From Acetofilamentum sp. (GTDB taxonomy: Bacteria; CAIWAD01), in the NCBI GenBank assembly GCA_020726405.1, contig DYSB01000001.1:7440-71439 (forward strand): a stretch of DNA of 64,000 nucleotides, written 5' to 3'. Below are positions 3,257 through 52,741 of the stretch, one piece after another (the stretch's first letter is position 1; each line of letters starts with the position of its first letter). A program made the position numbers and the translations under genes. The notes beneath the pieces are model-generated. The model was not told the origin of the DNA. It worked only from the letters and a program-made list of their open reading frames with translations, and ran no database searches.

Positions 3257-3286
3257 CGTCACACCGCCATCTGGATTTTTCCGGAC

Positions 3287-3413
3287 GGTCACGAAGTTCA
3301 GGAAGAGGCCGAAGAACACGAAGACGAATCAGGGTGTCACCCGACTGCCGCTTCTCTTCGATCGGTCTCCCGCTTCCTGATCTTCGTTCCGCTTCGTGTG
3401 CTTCGTGTCCCGC
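3287..3413. repeat. palindromic intergenic repeat element, copy A (CGAAG-decamer arms)
   Basis: pheS-pheT spacer is unusually long (168 bp). Left arm 3287-3330: GGTCACGAAGTTCAGGAAGAGGCCGAAGAACACGAAGACGAATC. Right arm 3379-3413: GATCTTCGTTCCGCTTCGTGTGCTTCGTGTCCCGC. The arms are inverted relative to each other and each has ~10-nt periodic CGAAG/CTTCG units. Copy B at 12291-12472 shares GGTCACGAAG and the terminal CTTCGTGTCCCGC. Confidence 0.6.
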
Positions 3414-3424
3414 TCCGGGTCCGC

Positions 3425-7899: not shown

Positions 7900-7986
7900 C
7901 AGAAGCCGCGAAATGTAGAGTTGCCCGAGGCTGGAGTCAAGAACTCAGGTAGATTTCTCGTTGACTTTGTCGTTGGGGAGGAGATG

Positions 7987-8174
7987 TCCACAGATTACAC
8001 AAATTACACGGATCAAAAACTGTTTTCATCTGAAACCAAATTTTGTCGCAATTGATGGTCATTCTAAATACCTGCAACTTTCAAACCTATTGACAGATAA
8101 TATGAGTTTAACGATGCAGTGTAGCATTTATTCAATTTATTGCCTTAATTCGTGAAATTTGTGTAATCTGTGGA
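7987..8174. mobile_element. MITE-like element with 19-bp perfect terminal inverted repeats
   Basis: TCCACAGATTACACAAATT at 7987-8005 and its exact reverse complement AATTTGTGTAATCTGTGGA at 8156-8174 flank ~150 bp of strongly AT-rich DNA in an otherwise GC-rich genome. The repeat extends to ~24 bp with one mismatch. No transposase-like ORF; track ORF 7961..8155 inside is low-complexity. No clear target-site duplication. Confidence 0.5.
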
Positions 8175-8193
8175 TACCTGGTTTTACCTAACT

Positions 8194-9636: not shown

Positions 9637-11280
9637 TCAGATACTGCGCGCCACCAGCACAACGGTCATGATCTGGGAGGCAACCAGCAGGCCTTCCTTG
9701 AACTTCTCCCAGGCGGTGAGATCCTCCCGCGGCACCAACATCAGGGCGTCGCCGGCGGCCATTACAGTTCCCAGGGAGGCAGGGCTGAACTGGTCCTCCC
9801 CCACGTGGCGCAGGCGCAGCTCGTTGAGCCGCGCGCCACGCAGCTTGCCGCCCGCGGCTTTCAGGTAGTCGCGGACCGTCCACCCATCCCGCCAAGCCTG
9901 GACACCCGGATGCTTGACGGCGCCCAGCACCTCCACGTCGTCGGAGCGGCGCAGCACGCGGACTTCGTCGCCGTCGGCCAGAATCAGGTGCGCGGCGTCC
10001 AGGCGTCCATTCTCGTAGACCACCGACACCCTGCCGCCCTCCTGGATGACGCGGGCCTTGAGGTATTCCCGTTCGAAGCGCGAGATGTCGCTCCCCGCAC
10101 TTCGCAGCTCCGCGAAGTTCCTCTCCAAGTCCATCTCCGGCCGGCGGGTGACCTTGATGGCCATGAGCGCGGCAGACTGGCTGTCCGGCTGGGCCCACTC
10201 CAGCAATTCCGCCAACGTCGTCTGACCCGGATTGATCGCGTAGGGCCCGGGCCGCAGCACGCGTCCGTTGATGGTCACCTGTTTGGACATGTCCTGGAGG
10301 TTGTCCGCCCGCATGTAAAGGCGGTCGTAGGCTTGAATGCTGATGCCCCGGTACTCGGGGGACTGCTCACTGAAGCGCCAATTGCCGACGAAATTGCCGA
10401 AGGGATCGAAGCGCACCAGTTCGTACGCCACGCCCGTCAGGCCGATGCGCGGCCCGCCCAGAATCTCCACGATGTCCGCCGGCGTATCGCCCTCGCGGAA
10501 CTCCACTTCGTCCTGGCCTTGCCGGAAGGAGCCAAACACGCGGACGATGGAATTGCGGAAGCTGAACAGGATCCGGTCACCGCTCTCCAGCACCGGGTCC
10601 TGCTCCAGATCACCCGTGCGCAGGTATCTGAGCAGGTCCACGTGTAGAGCGCTGTCGCCGCGAACCACTTCCACGTTGCGGAAGGCCAGCGGCATTTCCT
10701 GGGCCAGGGCCGAGACCTGCTGCAGGGCGCCACTGGTGCTGGTGGAAGGCACCATCATTTGCTGAGCCGCCGCGCCACGGAAGTTGGGCAGCCAAGTGGG
10801 CGGCTTGAGCACCGTGTGCAGGCGCGTGGTGTAATTCAACTCCAGAAACCGGGGCACCAGGTCGGCGCCGCTCACCGTCACCTGGATGCGGCGGGGGCGA
10901 GCCACCCACACATCCACGGAGTCGCACCCGTACATGATGGCCAGGCGCGGTCCCAGCCTGCGACGCAGTTCCAGCAGACTCAGTCCGGCCACAGACACGC
11001 GGCCCAGACCTGGCAGTTCCAGCCGGCCGTCCGTGTCCACCAAGTCTTCCTTGCGGTTCAGATCCACGTTGAAGGCCAGATGCCCCACCAGGTCGCCGGG
11101 ACCGAGGATGTACTCCGCCGGGTCCACGGGCTGGTCCAGGATCCAGTCCGCCATGGGGGTCGCCGTGGCGCCGGAGGCGGTGGTTGTTTTCTTGATCATG
11201 CCCAGATCGAACTGGGCGACGCCCGTTCCCACCCCGGCCAGCAGGGTCAGCAGCAGCCAGCAAACCGACATTCGCCTCAT
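9637..11280 (-). CDS. polysaccharide export outer-membrane protein (Wza-like, SLBB domains)
   Basis: Signal peptide MRRMSVCWLLLTLLAGVGTGVA starts at the internal ATG (11280), whose ATGA overlaps the stop of the upstream gene. PGDLV and ILGGPRIGLTGV-type soluble-ligand-binding beta-grasp repeats typical of Wza/KpsD-family exporters. Confidence 0.8.
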   Translation of the reverse strand: MRRMSVCWLLLTLLAGVGTGVAQFDLGMIKKTTTASGATATPMADWILDQPVDPAEYILGPGDLVGHLAFNVDLNRKEDLVDTDGRLELPGLGRVSVAGLSLLELRRRLGPRLAIMYGCDSVDVWVARPRRIQVTVSGADLVPRFLELNYTTRLHTVLKPPTWLPNFRGAAAQQMMVPSTSTSGALQQVSALAQEMPLAFRNVEVVRGDSALHVDLLRYLRTGDLEQDPVLESGDRILFSFRNSIVRVFGSFRQGQDEVEFREGDTPADIVEILGGPRIGLTGVAYELVRFDPFGNFVGNWRFSEQSPEYRGISIQAYDRLYMRADNLQDMSKQVTINGRVLRPGPYAINPGQTTLAELLEWAQPDSQSAALMAIKVTRRPEMDLERNFAELRSAGSDISRFEREYLKARVIQEGGRVSVVYENGRLDAAHLILADGDEVRVLRRSDDVEVLGAVKHPGVQAWRDGWTVRDYLKAAGGKLRGARLNELRLRHVGEDQFSPASLGTVMAAGDALMLVPREDLTAWEKFKEGLLVASQIMTVVLVARSI

Positions 11281-12275
11281 CGTGTCCCGTCCTCCATTCG
11301 TCGGTGCAGGCCGCCCGTCCAGGCCTTGTTGTCGGAGTACCAATCCAGGGTGCGGGCCAGTCCGTCCTCAAAATCGACGCGCGGGCGCCAGCCTAGTTCG
11401 CGTTCCAGTTTCGTGGCGTCGATGGCGTAGCGCAGGTCATGGCCCGGCCGGTCGCCCACGAAGCGGATCAGGCTCTCGGGCTTGCCCAGCTTGCGCAGCA
11501 GCAACCTGACGATCTCGATGTTCCGCCACTCGTTGTTGCCGCCCACGTTGTAGACGGCGCCATCCGCCGCGCGGGTGAAGACGGTCCAGAGCGCCTCCGC
11601 GTGGTCCTCCACGTAGAGCCAGTCGCGCACGTTGAGGCCCCGGCCGTAGACGGGCAGTTCCTCGTCGCGCGTGGCCTTCCAGATCATCAGCGGAATCAGC
11701 TTCTCGGGAAACTGGTAGGGCCCGTAATTGTTGCTGCAGCGCGTGAGCACGGCCTCCACGCCGAAGGTGCGGCGCCAGGCCTGGAGAAGCAGATCGCCCG
11801 CCGCTTTGCTGGCGCTGTAAGGACTGGAGGGCGCAAGCTGCGTCTCTTCCGTGAAGCGCCCGCCGCCCTCGCCCAGGTCGCCGTAGACCTCGTCCGTGGA
11901 CACCTGCAGGAGGCGCAGGCGCCGGCCCCGGGCCTGCTGGGCTCGCAGGCCGTCCAGCAGCACACGCAGCCCCAGGATGTTGGTGCGCAGGAAGACGTCG
12001 GGATCGTCGATGCTGCGGTCCACATGGCTCTCGGCCGCGAAGTTGATCAGGCCGTCCACGCGCTCCAGCAGGGAATTCACCAGCCTTAAGTCCAGGATGT
12101 CCCCGTGGACGAACTCGTAGCCTTCCCGGCCCTCCAGCTCCGCCAGACTCGCGCGGCAGCCGGCGTAGGTCAACGCGTCCAGGTTGACGACGGCGTGCTC
12201 CGGGTGTCGCGCCCGCAGCCAGCGGATGAAGTTGCAGCCGATGAATCCCGCCCCGCCGGTGACCAGCAGCCTCAT
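11277..12275 (-). CDS. rfbB: dTDP-glucose 4,6-dehydratase
   Basis: MRLLVTGGAGFIGCNF Rossmann start (internal ATG at 12275). YSASKA catalytic motif and NNYGPYQFPEKLIP are typical of RfbB. Confidence 0.85.
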   Translation of the reverse strand: MRLLVTGGAGFIGCNFIRWLRARHPEHAVVNLDALTYAGCRASLAELEGREGYEFVHGDILDLRLVNSLLERVDGLINFAAESHVDRSIDDPDVFLRTNILGLRVLLDGLRAQQARGRRLRLLQVSTDEVYGDLGEGGGRFTEETQLAPSSPYSASKAAGDLLLQAWRRTFGVEAVLTRCSNNYGPYQFPEKLIPLMIWKATRDEELPVYGRGLNVRDWLYVEDHAEALWTVFTRAADGAVYNVGGNNEWRNIEIVRLLLRKLGKPESLIRFVGDRPGHDLRYAIDATKLERELGWRPRVDFEDGLARTLDWYSDNKAWTGGLHRRMEDGTR

Positions 12276-12290
12276 GCGGCCTCCGCTCCA

Positions 12291-12472
12291 GAGGTCACGA
12301 AGAGCACGAAGGCCGGAGAAGCACACGAAGAGAAGAATCGAGTTGGGGATCGGATCATTGCGGCATCATCCATGCCATGCGTCAATTGTTCGCTTGCCAC
12401 CAGACAATCCAGTTCTCTCATGCTCTGGCCCTTCGTGCCCTTCTTCCGACTTCGTGAACTTCGTGTCCCGCC
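12291..12472. repeat. palindromic intergenic repeat element, copy B
   Basis: Left arm 12291-12340: GAGGTCACGAAGAGCACGAAGGCCGGAGAAGCACACGAAGAGAAGAATCG. Right arm 12429-12472: CCCTTCGTGCCCTTCTTCCGACTTCGTGAACTTCGTGTCCCGCC, ending 1 nt from the TAG stop of the 592-aa gene. Same architecture and shared end motifs as copy A. Confidence 0.6.
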
Positions 12473-14251
12473 CTAGACCCGCGCCCGGCGGCTCTCCAGG
12501 TAGAGGGCCACGATCAGCACCAGCAGCGCCGTGCCGGCCATCACGGGCCAGGCCAGCAGATCCTGGAAGCGGCCGATGGCCAGGCTGATGCGGCCCATCA
12601 CCGTGTAGCCGAAACTGGCGCCGAAACTCATCATCAGGAAGGCGATGCCCACCTTGGAGACCACGCCCAGCGCGCCCGTGTGCTTCTTGGAGAAGAAGAA
12701 ATAGAACACGCCCGCGCAGACGCCGATCACCACCAGCAGGTTGGAAAAGATCTCCACCAGCATGTTCACGCGCATCTGGGTGGGGCTGCCCGTCACGCCG
12801 TAGGGTTCGAGGAACCCCGCCGGATCCCGGCGGAAAGCGTCCAGTTGGAGCCGCGTGTAGGGCGTCACCCGGTCCGGGCTGGTGTGCAGCGCGATGGTGT
12901 GCCGCAGCCAGCCCTGGCGCAGCAGACGCAGCTCGCGCAACACGCCCGCGCGCCAGTAACTCAGGAAGGCCGCATCGGCCGCCCGCCGGGCGGAATCCGG
13001 CAGCCCGGCGAAGATCGCCAGCTGGGCCTGCAGTTCGGACCGGTACCCGCCGTCCAGCGGGGCCAGCCGCGCCAGCAGGTTCCGCACCTGCTCGGCCTTC
13101 CATTCACCCAGCAGCACGGGCCGCGGATTGACTTCACTCAAGAGCGAGTCCGCCAGCCGACGCGTGACGGGCAGGCTCCAATCGGGCTGGCGTTCCGCGG
13201 GAAAGCCCTCGCTCTTCAGCAGCTGAACCAGGGGCGGACGGCCCGCCGGGAAGGCCAAGGCCTCCGCGGCGACAGCCGGCGCCAAGTCGAGGTAGCGGCC
13301 GCAGGCCTCCAGCAAACCCGCGCGGCCGGCGGGCGACTCCAGCCAGACGCGCGTGGCCACGAGGACCAGCCGGTCCTGCCAGGGCGCCAGCTCCGTTGTG
13401 GGCAGCTGGCCCGGAGCGGGCAGGCTCTCCTCCACGGGCATGCCGCCCAGCCCAGCGCAGAGCAGGCGCTCGAACTCCGCGTCCGCGCCCACCACCGCGG
13501 CTTGGCCCACGCGCATGGCCTTGAAACCCTCGCGCACCCGGGACTCCGGGGCTTCGATGTCGCTCAGACCCGCCAGCCCGTTGAGGCGCTGCTCCAGCTC
13601 CCCTTGCCAGGCCAGTCCGGCAGCGGCGGCGCGGCTGGAATCCTCCCCCAGCGCTTGCAGCCAGTCGGCGATCCAGTCCACCTGGGCCTGGCGACGCGCG
13701 CCCATTTCCCCTTGCGGCAGCACGCCCGCCGACTCCATGGCCGTCACCACCGTCTCCTTGCCGGAGAAGTCCTTCATGGTGGCTTCCAACTGCGGCACCA
13801 GCGCGCCCTGGGCGGCCTGGATGATCTGGATCCCGGCGAAAGCGCCGATCACGTAGGCCAGCGGCCAGCGGCTCAGCCAGTGCAGTTTGCGGCTGATTTT
13901 GAACAGCATCAGGATGCCCAGAGCCAGGAAGACGTAGTAGATGAACTGCCCGTGGGCTAGCCGCTCCAGCAGGCTGACGGGGTGGTCCGGGTAGGCCTCG
14001 GGCGCCAGTTGGCCCGCGCGGAAGAGCTGCTGGCGCACCGCGTCCACGGGCGGCAGCAGGCGGTTGATCAGATTGGGCCGGAGGATCTGGAACCAGACCA
14101 GCACCACGCCGTAGCCCGTGGAGACGCCCACGAAGACGTGCTCGGCGAACTTGTAGAAGGGGTTGTCCTGGTAGAGGAAGCTGAAGATCATCAGCGTCGA
14201 GAAACAGACCAGGAAGGCCCCCAGGACCTCCACGGAGAAGAGCGCGCCCAT
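12473..14251 (-). CDS. uncharacterised integral membrane protein (592 aa); TM helices at both ends, long Ala/Leu/Arg-rich helical middle
   Basis: Hydrophobic N-terminus (MGALFSVEVLGAFLVCFSTLMIFSF..., VFVGVSTGYGVVLVWF). ~350-aa hydrophilic helical region. 3-4 C-terminal TM segments (LVVIGVCAGVFYFFF, IAFLMMSFGASFGY, AGTALLVLIVALYL). Start at 14251 shares a nucleotide with the stop of the upstream gene. No family recognised. Confidence 0.65.
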   Translation of the reverse strand: MGALFSVEVLGAFLVCFSTLMIFSFLYQDNPFYKFAEHVFVGVSTGYGVVLVWFQILRPNLINRLLPPVDAVRQQLFRAGQLAPEAYPDHPVSLLERLAHGQFIYYVFLALGILMLFKISRKLHWLSRWPLAYVIGAFAGIQIIQAAQGALVPQLEATMKDFSGKETVVTAMESAGVLPQGEMGARRQAQVDWIADWLQALGEDSSRAAAAGLAWQGELEQRLNGLAGLSDIEAPESRVREGFKAMRVGQAAVVGADAEFERLLCAGLGGMPVEESLPAPGQLPTTELAPWQDRLVLVATRVWLESPAGRAGLLEACGRYLDLAPAVAAEALAFPAGRPPLVQLLKSEGFPAERQPDWSLPVTRRLADSLLSEVNPRPVLLGEWKAEQVRNLLARLAPLDGGYRSELQAQLAIFAGLPDSARRAADAAFLSYWRAGVLRELRLLRQGWLRHTIALHTSPDRVTPYTRLQLDAFRRDPAGFLEPYGVTGSPTQMRVNMLVEIFSNLLVVIGVCAGVFYFFFSKKHTGALGVVSKVGIAFLMMSFGASFGYTVMGRISLAIGRFQDLLAWPVMAGTALLVLIVALYLESRRARV

Positions 14252-15764: not shown

Positions 15765-16598
15765 CTATTGGATCAGGAACCAGTCCCGGAAGCGCCCGGC
15801 GCCCTCCAGCCAGCCCAGGGAGTCCAGGGTGACCAAGAGGGAGCCCAGCAGCATCACGGCGATGCAGACGATCTTGTACCAGTCCGTGGCCTTGAGATTG
15901 GAGAGCAGCTTGGGGTCGCGGCTCAGGTAGGCCGAGGCGGCGAACAGCTCCTCGCCGATCAGCGTGTAGTCGCAGGCCGCGATGAAGAAGGGCAGTTGGG
16001 TGACCTCAGCCGTCCCCGCCACCTGGATGGCCTTGGCCTCGAAGCCCGTCTCCGAGAGGATCAGCGACTCGGCGAAGAAGCGCCCCAGCAGCAGGTTGGC
16101 GGCGGGGCGCTCGCGCAGCATGATGCCGTTGACGCCCGCCGTGTAGGCGAACTGCTCATCCGAGATGAAACTGATGTTGCCCGGCTTGTGGTCTTCCGGC
16201 ACGCCGGCGTTGTAGAAGCCCTGGCGCACCATCTCTTCGGCCACGCTCATGACGAACGGAATGCGGCAGGGCACGAAGATCTCGGTCTTGTAGCGGGCCG
16301 CTGTCTCGGCCACCTTCCCCAGGATCAGCATCGAGGCGATGGTCTGAATGTCCTGCATGTCCTCGATGCCCGGCACGTAGAGGATGGGCCGGCCCATCTC
16401 CGTGCAGCGGCCCACGGCCTCCTCGATGGCGTCGATGCCCGCGATGCGCCGGATGAACAGGGAGCCGGGATCGCGCTTGATCCGCTGGTAGAAGTAGAAG
16501 AGCAGGACCACCATCAGCACGATGGTGCAGAAGACCGTGATCTGCCCGGCGCTGAGTGTGAGCGACCCCAGGGCGACCTGGGCAAGGGAGACCGGCAT
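15765..16598 (-). CDS. uncharacterised membrane-anchored protein (278 aa)
   Basis: Track ORF 15765..16991 runs through tRNA-Ser, so it is trimmed to the internal ATG at 16598. MPVSLAQVALGSLTLSAGQITVFCTIVLMVVLLFYFY (TM), a soluble middle, and C-terminal TM IVCIAVMLLGSLLVTL. Confidence 0.6.
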   Translation of the reverse strand: MPVSLAQVALGSLTLSAGQITVFCTIVLMVVLLFYFYQRIKRDPGSLFIRRIAGIDAIEEAVGRCTEMGRPILYVPGIEDMQDIQTIASMLILGKVAETAARYKTEIFVPCRIPFVMSVAEEMVRQGFYNAGVPEDHKPGNISFISDEQFAYTAGVNGIMLRERPAANLLLGRFFAESLILSETGFEAKAIQVAGTAEVTQLPFFIAACDYTLIGEELFAASAYLSRDPKLLSNLKATDWYKIVCIAVMLLGSLLVTLDSLGWLEGAGRFRDWFLIQ

Positions 16599-16761
16599 GA
16601 GACCCCCGGATTGTCGGATCGGTGTGCGGCCGGTGCAGCCGAATCGGCGTCTCGGCACGGCTCCGTCAGTGGCCCGCGGGTGGGTGCGGGCGCCCGGCAG
16701 TGTAACGAATGGTCGGGGCCGGAGAAAGGCTGCAAGCGGCGCGGCGGGCTGCCGAACCGGC

Positions 16762-16793
16762 CGGAAACAACAAGCCCCGCCAGGGCGGGGCTT
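16762..16793 (-). terminator. intrinsic terminator 3' of tRNA-Ser
   Basis: GCCCCGC / GCGGGGC 7-bp GC stem with 4-nt loop at 16774-16791. On the minus strand it is followed by UUGUUGUUUCC. Confidence 0.55.
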
Positions 16794-16797
16794 GCGA

Positions 16798-16888
16798 CGG
16801 AGGAGGTGGGATTCGAACCCACGGTGCACAGTTAAGCACACAACGGATTTCGAGTCCGTCCGATTCAACCACTCTCGCACTCCTCCGG
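16798..16888 (-). tRNA. tRNA-Ser (anticodon CGA)
   Basis: Reverse complement: GGAGGAGUGCGAGAGUGGUUGAAUCGGACGGACUCGAAAUCCGUUGUGUGCUUAACUGUGCACCGUGGGUUCGAAUCCCACCUCCUCCG. Anticodon stem ACGGA/UCCGU with loop CUCGAAA, long variable arm, T arm GUGGG-UUCGAAU-CCCAC, 7-bp acceptor stem plus G discriminator. Confidence 0.85.
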
Positions 16889-17246
16889 GATGCTGGTCAA
16901 CTGGTTCGCCGGAGCCAACGGCCCCTGGACGAACCACGCCTAACCAATCACCGGCGTCAGGCCGGGTCGAACGGGCAGCAACGTAACACACGAGGCAGCC
17001 GGAGCCAAGCTGCGCCGGGCTGTCCGCCGGGCTGGACAGTTGGGACGTGGCGTGGGACAGGCGGCGAGCCCGGGTCCGCGCACCTTGACGCCAGCAAAAA
17101 ATAGTGGCTCTGGGACCCCACTTTACGGGGAACCTGAATAGGCCTAAGTTCTGTTCAGCCGCTCCCCAAGCCTTTGGGCGGGTGGGGGGCGGTGGGATGG
17201 CTCGTCAATACTTACTTCCGAACTCCCCCAACAAGCTCGGCAGCGC

Positions 17247-52556: not shown

Positions 52557-52602
52557 CGGTCGATCTCCTGCCTGCTCGCTTCTACTACATCAACCCGAGA
52601 CT

Positions 52603-52713
52603 CAACACAGAGACACAGCATCAGAGATGGCTTGGAAACGAATCGGATCCTGCACTTTCCGCCGCGCCTGTTTCTCATTCAATCTTCGTCTCTGTGCCTC
52701 TGTGCCTCTGTGG
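52603..52713. repeat. diverged third copy of the palindromic intergenic repeat (CACAGAG/CTCTGTG arms) with an 8-bp tandem repeat
   Basis: Left arm AACACAGAGACACAGCATCAGAGA (52604-52627). Right arm AATCTTCGTCTCTGTGCCTCTGTGCCTCTGTGG (52681-52713), containing TCTGTGCC x2.9. Arm ends AACAC...ATCAG and ATCTTCGT match copy A (AACACGAAGACGAATCAG and GATCTTCGT). Lies 26 nt 3' of the nfnB stop and ~45 nt 5' of the rubrerythrin start. Confidence 0.45.
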
Positions 52714-52741
52714 TGAGAGGCCTCCCCCGGTCGAATCCCCC

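Follow-up and report, generated by a model that had tools for sequence, protein, structure and literature searches.

A hairpin-forming repeat upstream of an rfbB-like gene as a probable insertion of a dispersed family of polar CAC-heptamer repeats

Copy B, a 180-base hairpin-forming repeat in the spacer upstream of an rfbB-like gene, is probably, though by no means certainly, one insertion of a dispersed non-coding repeat resembling REP elements and foldback transposons, whose heptamers would be read by a putative factor and which would be co-transcribed with its neighbors as a stem-loop. We studied it in a 64,000-nucleotide stretch of an Acetofilamentum sp. contig (DYSB01000001.1, assembly GCA_020726405.1), hereafter the window, to which positions refer unless another sequence is named. 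Judged by comparison with relatives, copy B is not a conserved regulator of the polysaccharide-gene operon in which it lies; a stabilizing or insulating effect on the upstream message would be a possible side effect.

Results

Structure of copy B and its locus

All genes concerned at the locus lie on the minus strand. The intergenic spacer that holds copy B (12276 to 12472, 197 bp) extends from the TAG (12473-12475) of a 592-aa ORF (12473 to 14251), which has no Pfam domain and is the last gene of a four-gene module led by DUF6754, to the ATG (12275) of the rfbB-like gene (11277 to 12275), predicted to encode a NAD-dependent sugar dehydratase (GDP_Man_Dehyd, E = 6e-77; Epimerase, E = 2e-61). 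Read in the mRNA sense, copy B starts 5 nt past the stop codon of the 592-aa ORF, between same-direction genes, with an arm of four units (12431 to 12468, minus strand), GGACACGAAG TT CACGAAG TC GGAAGAAG GG CACGAAG. This is followed by a loop of 100 nt (12331 to 12430, minus strand) with a small hairpin of its own inside, and then by the 3′ arm (12293 to 12330, minus strand), CTTCGTG TG CTTCTCC GGC CTTCGTG CT CTTCGTG ACC, which ends 18 nt before the rfbB ATG. In an inverted-repeat search, the two arms were 38 nt each, 79% complementary, and 100 nt apart. The CACGAAG heptamers of each arm are split by 2, 3, and 2 nt (spacing 7-2-7-3-7-2-7), and the third is degenerate. Since copy B is palindromic, both strands read CACGAAG arm, loop, CTTCGTG arm. 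The sense RNA has a predicted fold of -85.1 kcal/mol (z = -2.9), a stability reached by 3 of 200 shuffles.

The earlier note on this DNA quoted arm sequences that are indeed found in the window where it placed them, and the 197-bp spacer that it described upstream of the rfbB-like gene agrees with 12276-12472. It also took copy B to be a repeat in common with copy A, which is borne out by shared end blocks and the same four-unit arm layout. The unit, which it called a decamer, is instead a 7-nt core plus a 2- to 3-nt spacer, giving a period of 9 to 10 nt.

We note some further features of the locus. The loop of copy B contains the ATG (12421) of a 49-codon ORF on the minus strand (12272-12421), which reads across the 3′ arm and whose stop overlaps the rfbB start as ATGA. 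Both of the loop positions at which the related sequences L118/L150 differ are non-synonymous in this frame, and copy A has no equivalent ORF. Upstream of copy B, the four-gene module opens with the gene for the DUF6754 protein (15765-16790). The ORF listed there (15765 to 16991) overlaps a tRNA-Ser gene (16796-16887), so its real start must lie downstream of the tRNA. For the first two window ORFs tried, no exact protein match was on record, and the choice of start codon is the probable reason.

Three further elements in the window

Copy A, in the pheS/pheT spacer (3287 to 3413, minus strand), belongs to the same subfamily as copy B, with end blocks GCGGGACACGAAG ... CTTCGTGACC and four-unit arms. 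The two copies have in common these end blocks, the 7-2-7-3-7-2-7 layout, and an inner GATTC block, but their loops differ. The end block CTTCGTGTCCCGC occurs exactly in the window only at 3401 and 12459. We counted 23 occurrences of the heptamer CACGAAG or its complement CTTCGTG in the window, where 8.6 ± 3.0 were expected; none of 100 shuffles reached this count. Six of the occurrences are in copy B and four in copy A. Element C, in the wbaP/tRNA-Val spacer (7982 to 8179, minus strand), is AT-rich and has arms of 35 nt that are 86% complementary, built from units CACAGAT / CACAAAT / CACGAAT (z = -5.1); it is about one-third GC in a genome of 66% GC. Element D (52597 to 52716, minus strand), between a gltD-like oxidoreductase gene and a rubrerythrin gene, is of the CACAGAG variant, with its units at 8-nt spacing. 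All four elements lie between same-direction genes, and none of their loops, that of copy B included, matches anything else among the sequence fetched. The other window spacers that were read contain no such arrays, and some of them hold ordinary short GC-rich hairpins.

Elements of the same architecture in other phyla and viral contigs

We searched a one-genome-per-species collection with the 18-base end pattern GGGACACGAAGNNCACGAAG, which matched at least 117 stretches in many phyla. These include Acidobacteriota, Planctomycetota, Verrucomicrobiota, Chloroflexota, Gemmatimonadota, and Bacteroidota and, among the matches listed, Alpha-, Beta-, and Gammaproteobacteria and others. Roughly a third of the listed matches were full hairpins with a partner array downstream; the remaining ones were long direct arrays or chance matches in coding sequence. 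In all, we found no fewer than 100 non-identical elements with this architecture elsewhere. In viral contigs, the full-hairpin pattern was found at 14 loci for CACGAAG and 31 loci for CACAGAG, and the same pattern with its arms swapped at 0 and 0. Among the fetched loci, 55 had the CAC arm first and 9 were reversed, most of these 9 being junctions between adjacent elements. As the swapped arrangement would pair equally well, this polarity is a real property of the family.

Family termini usually read (T)CAC|CAC... ...GTG|GTG(A), with a flank consensus of TtnAC| ... |GTnAA. The loops, with a median of 30 nt, are often AT-rich and unrelated between genomes; within L158 and L173, copies with common loops occur in both orientations.

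Several of the loci differ from the common form. A contig from the viral collection (L140, 1100-6900) carries about six elements in 7.5 kb, approximately one per intergenic spacer. Direct arrays of CACGAAGGG(A), with 11 to more than 30 units and no inverted partner, are present in L024 (7393-7728), L026 (2621-2903), and L077 (6961-7057); their GGG runs every 9 to 10 nt are compatible with a G-quadruplex pattern. Two Streptomyces loci (L039 and L065) have short arrays directly upstream of an ATG. In L161 (650-1860), palindromes are nested, with CACAGAG hairpins lying within outer inverted arrays of the 9-nt unit CGCAAAGnn. In L078 (5400-5585, Bacteroidota), all four 5′-arm units are CACGGAG and all four 3′-arm units are CTTCGTG, so each pair reads as G.T on one strand and as A.C on the opposite strand; the flanking genes were called on the A.C strand. 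When arrays 0.6 to 1.8 kb apart were inspected for an enclosed gene, L105 (3217-5061) was found to have a pair of arms, alike in their layout of units and spacers, that are 1.8 kb apart and enclose a 426-aa ORF without a Pfam domain. This could be a cargo-carrying or autonomous version of the element and provides a lead; a GTAG-type REP also lies within the same interval.

The family is apparently undescribed. We searched Rfam with the window, copy B, and six clean family members, using both the gathering score and permissive E-values. In the window, only two tRNAs reached the gathering score; below it, the matches were far-below-threshold miRNA-precursor models and one sub-threshold Xoo2 sRNA located away from the elements. 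Searches of the searchable literature by arm sequence and by concept returned no description of the family, and the sole sequence match was a Bacteroides fragilis PCR primer whose final bases are, by coincidence, CTCTGTGTTCTCTGTGGTG. A BLAST search of a plasmid collection with the consensus arm gave one chance match in a coding region only.

Presence, absence, and replacement in relatives

The closest relative contig is JBAYTZ010000002.1 of GCA_041675285.1, which is 94% identical to the window; the PheS of this MAG is assigned to Candidatus Delongbacteria by one source. Syntenic sequences form a graded series: L131 and L132 are of the same strain as the window, L118/L150, L151, and L152 are about 94-96% identical, and L126 is 85% identical. 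Further out, the PheS proteins of L127/L128 and L129/L130 are 84% and 83% identical to that of the window.

Between the 592-aa ORF and rfbB, copy B is present in L131, where it is identical, and in L118/L150 (192 of 197 positions), while in L127/L128 this spacer is 68 bp long and element-free. The pheS/pheT spacer is likewise element-free in L127/L128 (93 bp) and L129/L130 (44 bp). At this site, L126 and L150/L151/L152 have one element in common, A′, whose ends read TTCAC|CACGAAG ... CTTCGTG|GTGAA; the window has copy A with B-type ends in its place, next to a TGA stop where all relatives have TAG. The stretches compared were 3257-3424 of the window, 11003-11206 of L150, and 4104-4308 of L126, in genomes about 6% apart. 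L131 and L132, independent assemblies of the strain of the window, both end about 255 nt before the pheS stop. L150 also has element C at wbaP/tRNA-Val; L127 and L129 do not. A heptamer-chain scan of the 21-kb syntenic loci L127 and L129 found 0 arrays, and the same region of the window has three elements. In L151 (2106-2321), which is 96% identical to the window in thrS-pheS, a different gene lies upstream of tRNA-Val and element C is missing; a short palindrome there, GTGTGGATACC...GTCCACAAAT, resembles the termini of element C.

On this distribution, the elements at the three sites are lineage-specific insertions. The comparison shows that copy B entered the 592-aa ORF/rfbB spacer recently, within the Candidatus Delongbacteria lineage of the window. 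It likewise shows that family elements turn over at a given site, the element in pheS/pheT having been replaced within a sequence divergence of about 6%. The ends of copy B have no direct repeat next to them, and there was no close empty site by which to define junctions or a target-site duplication.

Conservation of arms and loops

We compared identity within the elements to identity at four-fold sites of the same genomes. Between L150 and L126, the A′ arms are identical at 94 of 103 positions and four-fold sites at 333 of 456 (73%; P = 4e-6), and the whole A′ spacer is identical at 159 of 217 positions (73%). The differences in the A′ arms are confined to spacer or degenerate positions. Copy B, compared between the window and L118, is 97.5% identical over the spacer (192/197), with four-fold sites at 305/343 and 157/176 (89%; P = 9e-6). 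For element C, compared between the window and L150, identity over the element and its downstream spacer is 269/297 (91%), with four-fold sites at 89-93%; nearly all of the differences fall within the element, and its divergence is roughly neutral. Within its arms, one pair has changed in a compensatory manner (G-C to A-T) and another from A-T to G.T. The 80 nt from element C to tRNA-Val are 99% conserved.

Taken together, these alignments show arms that are maintained well above the neutral rate and loops that generally are not. Such conservation fits selection on the hairpin, as well as homogenization or gene conversion among copies, besides a binding protein. At 98% identity in L150/L118, the loop of copy B is itself conserved, which is unexplained by a view limited to the arms and may reflect either constraint or a recent shared origin of the segment.

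Pairing of the arms and the case for a regulatory RNA

In a set of 71 non-identical elements, the dinucleotides that separate the heptamers show 49% complementarity from arm to arm, compared to 36 ± 4.5% in a shuffled null, so half of these positions are mismatched. Of the paired heptamers, 121 are identical and 52 carry a single difference. In the elements with units listed, unit variants differ by G/A transitions; within the heptamer CAC is invariant and is followed by a purine run. In elements with mixed variants, the variants do not follow a complementary order, with 15 unit matches in palindromic order and 22 in direct order. In elements between tandem genes, arm mismatches that are G.U-compatible on the sense strand and those that are A.C-incompatible number 15 and 15 (18:18 in a separate count), and the equality means that there is no family-wide sign of selection on an RNA helix. 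The heptamer is conserved beyond what a hairpin needs, from which we infer recognition by a factor, probably on DNA. Other motifs considered (DnaA box, parS, CsrA, sigma-54, G-quadruplex) misfit the heptamers, or misfit some of their variants, and were rejected.

Within the lineage of the window, the sense fold was at least as stable as the antisense fold in 6 of 6 comparisons, two of which differ by no more than 1.5 kcal/mol; across phyla, the sense strand was the more stable in 13 cases and the antisense strand in 8. Strand-specific RNA selection was rejected as a line of evidence.

These results bear on the idea, put forward in the earlier note, that copy B is a dedicated cis-regulatory RNA stem-loop that uncouples the expression or stability of the DUF6754 four-gene message from that of rfbB-wza-wbaP. 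We consider this unlikely. Its location immediately past one stop and shortly before the next start in a same-direction array would suit such a role, as would a very stable fold that is stabler on the sense strand (-77.1 vs -67.3 kcal/mol for the antisense in a separate strand comparison) and an identity of 97.5% over the whole element, loop included, where four-fold sites are at 89%. However, the syntenic spacer of L127/L128 does without the element, and the same element type is found in the unrelated gene pairs pheS/pheT, wbaP/tRNA-Val, and gltD-like/rubrerythrin, the first of which encodes the two subunits of one enzyme. No U-tract follows the stem of copy B, and the family lacks a sense-strand G.U bias. 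An insertion of a dispersed repeat is the reading that we prefer for these observations.

Gene context, termination, and operators

We next consider the 50 elements with both flanking genes called, of which 40 lie between tandem, 7 between convergent, and 3 between divergent genes; with 25% expected, 3 or fewer divergent cases have P = 5e-4. The median element lies about 40 nt past the upstream stop and about 45 nt short of the next start. Gene calls at the foreign loci were made with a home-made ORF and GC3 heuristic, which is noisy; applied to the window, it failed to call rfbB and pheT.

An intrinsic (Rho-independent) terminator or attenuator, possibly bidirectional, is an improbable account of copy B. 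In its favor, some family members in other phyla (for example, L011, L038, and L056) have an A-run on their upstream side and a T-run on their downstream side, and the seven elements between convergent genes lie within a few tens of nt of both stops. But only 24 of 98 elements are followed within 22 nt by at least four consecutive T, and the 3′ foot of copy B is followed by TCTGGAGCGGAGG, with no T-run or U-tract after the stem. Promoter and terminator scans predicted no site overlapping copy B and none in its loop. The preponderance of same-direction arrays (40 of 50) also speaks against termination, and the element within pheS/pheT, two subunits of one enzyme, argues against strong termination in particular.

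More improbable still is a double-stranded DNA operator array through which a local transcription factor or nucleoid protein would control rfbB. Directional heptamers at fixed spacing in inverted arrays, conserved more than pairing demands, would be expected of such an array, but there is no promoter-like site in or near copy B, the family avoids divergent, promoter-bearing spacers (3 of 50), its members are dispersed among unrelated genes and phyla, and relatives with the same operon lack the element. Finally, the notion that copy B is an inverted repeat that arose by chance or by simple slippage and belongs to no family, which might have been suspected as inverted repeats of 22-28 nt with 70-78% complementarity are common in the GC-rich window, is refuted by the heptamer enrichment that no shuffle reached, the exact 13-nt end blocks shared with copy A, the conservation of copy B in relatives, and the 100 or more non-identical elements of the same architecture elsewhere.

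Discussion

A putative factor reading polar heptamers

Our preferred reading, that copy B is one insertion of a dispersed repeat, can be put in terms of a candidate mechanism. Each arm is a short tandem array of the polar heptamer CACRRRG (here CACGAAG) at 9- to 10-nt spacing, and the arms face inward, such that both strands present CAC arm, loop, and GTG arm around a variable loop that bears no family signature. The heptamers may serve as recognition sites for a trans-acting protein, i.e., a transposase, a recombinase, or another DNA-binding factor, which would copy the arms or homogenize them. Placed as it is among genes of one direction, the element is probably transcribed with its neighbors, and the transcript would fold as a long imperfect stem-loop right past the stop codon. 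By analogy with REP elements, this stem-loop could impede 3′-exonucleases or provide a processing site. Any such effect on the mRNA would be a consequence of the insertion and not the cause of its presence.

We searched for the factor near the elements. A Pfam search of about 50 window ORFs found no transposase, recombinase, RAYT/Y1, or integrase domain, and eleven of the ORFs had no domain at all. No recurrent neighbor gene family emerged from an all-against-all BLAST of ORFs within 3 kb of the 117 loci. The copies in the genome of the window share no interior, so classical copy-and-paste of a master element is not supported.

More tentatively, we propose that these elements form an unnamed cross-phylum superfamily of polar CAC-heptamer foldback repeats, maintained by a conserved candidate factor that reads the heptamers. 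It would be defined by CACRRRG units with a 9- to 10-nt period, termini of (T)CAC...GTG(A), a CAC arm that always comes first, and free loops. The factor might belong to new bacterial or phage mobile-DNA machinery, or the heptamers might interact with a universal machine. With regard to the latter, the invariant YGTG every 9 to 10 nt presumably resembles the downstream half of the RNA polymerase elemental pause consensus, and we take its spacing to be about one RNA-DNA hybrid length.

For the locus of copy B the outcome is deflationary, as the hairpin is a recent passenger in an operon spacer. More broadly, one architecture with strict polarity recurs over many phyla and viral contigs and in some genomes occupies nearly every operon spacer. 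If a single factor reads the heptamers, its identification would explain a widespread class of bacterial non-coding DNA, and the elements could act as markers of strain-level turnover.

Comparison with known systems

REP elements within operons stabilize upstream mRNA, as in malE-malF. Copy B is like REP, BIME, and REPIN sequences in being short, non-coding, extragenic, hairpin-forming, and dispersed in many copies, mostly downstream of genes in transcribed spacers and with lineage-specific presence; the family is, in addition, rarely found between divergent genes, as the counts given above attest. A REP unit is a single imperfect palindrome of 20-40 nt with a GTAG or CGTC tag (PMC3733652), and a REPIN consists of two inverted REPs (PMC3116915). 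The arms of copy B, in contrast, are 38-nt arrays of four direct heptamers around a 100-nt loop, and its ends, those given above for the subfamily, show no GTAG/CTAC or CGTC/GACG at either foot. The family also differs from REPs in its long and variable loops and in having the same heptamers across phyla, and no RAYT was among the window ORFs scanned.

The FB elements of Drosophila have the same foldback design, and their middle region may carry nothing. Galileo, also of the foldback type, has long terminal inverted repeats composed of short tandem repeats around a variable middle (PMC3573991). Inverted arms of short tandem repeats around a variable middle are thus what copy B shares with FB and Galileo. 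These are, however, eukaryotic and kilobase-scale, with identified transposases, whereas the elements of the present family are 50-260 bp long and bacterial or phage-borne, and no transposase was found for them.

Bacterial MITEs (for example, Correia, Nezha, and Chunjie) are likewise small and non-autonomous, with inverted ends and insertion polymorphism between relatives, and copy B does possess terminal inverted repeats. MITE copies, however, share an interior and have target-site duplications and an IS parent, whereas copies A and B share only their arms and no parent element was found. In the window, the loops of A, B, C, and D are each unique, although some copies in L158 and L173 do share loops.

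Tandemly amplified heptanucleotides in intergenic DNA are known as the STRR of heterocystous cyanobacteria. Copy B has tandem heptamers in intergenic DNA as well, but STRR have other sequences, occur in other taxa, and form direct arrays with no fixed inverted arrangement. The attC sites of integrons are imperfect palindromes of variable length and sequence with heptamer cores RYYYAAC ... GTTRRRY, which have an RRR/YYY center. The family resembles them as variable imperfect palindromes defined by heptamer cores, but its polarity is opposite (CACRRRG ... CYYYGTG, with the conserved triplet outermost), it has three or four units per arm where attC has two, and the window offers neither an integrase nor a cassette context. 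An intrinsic terminator has a GC-rich stem directly followed by a U-tract, a succession that copy B does not show.

Copy B thus shows neither the unit form and tag that define REPs, nor the shared interior and parent element that define MITEs, nor the U-tract that defines intrinsic terminators. By analogy, it is likest REP/REPIN sequences in its location and in the expected behavior of its transcript, and likest foldback transposons in its anatomy.
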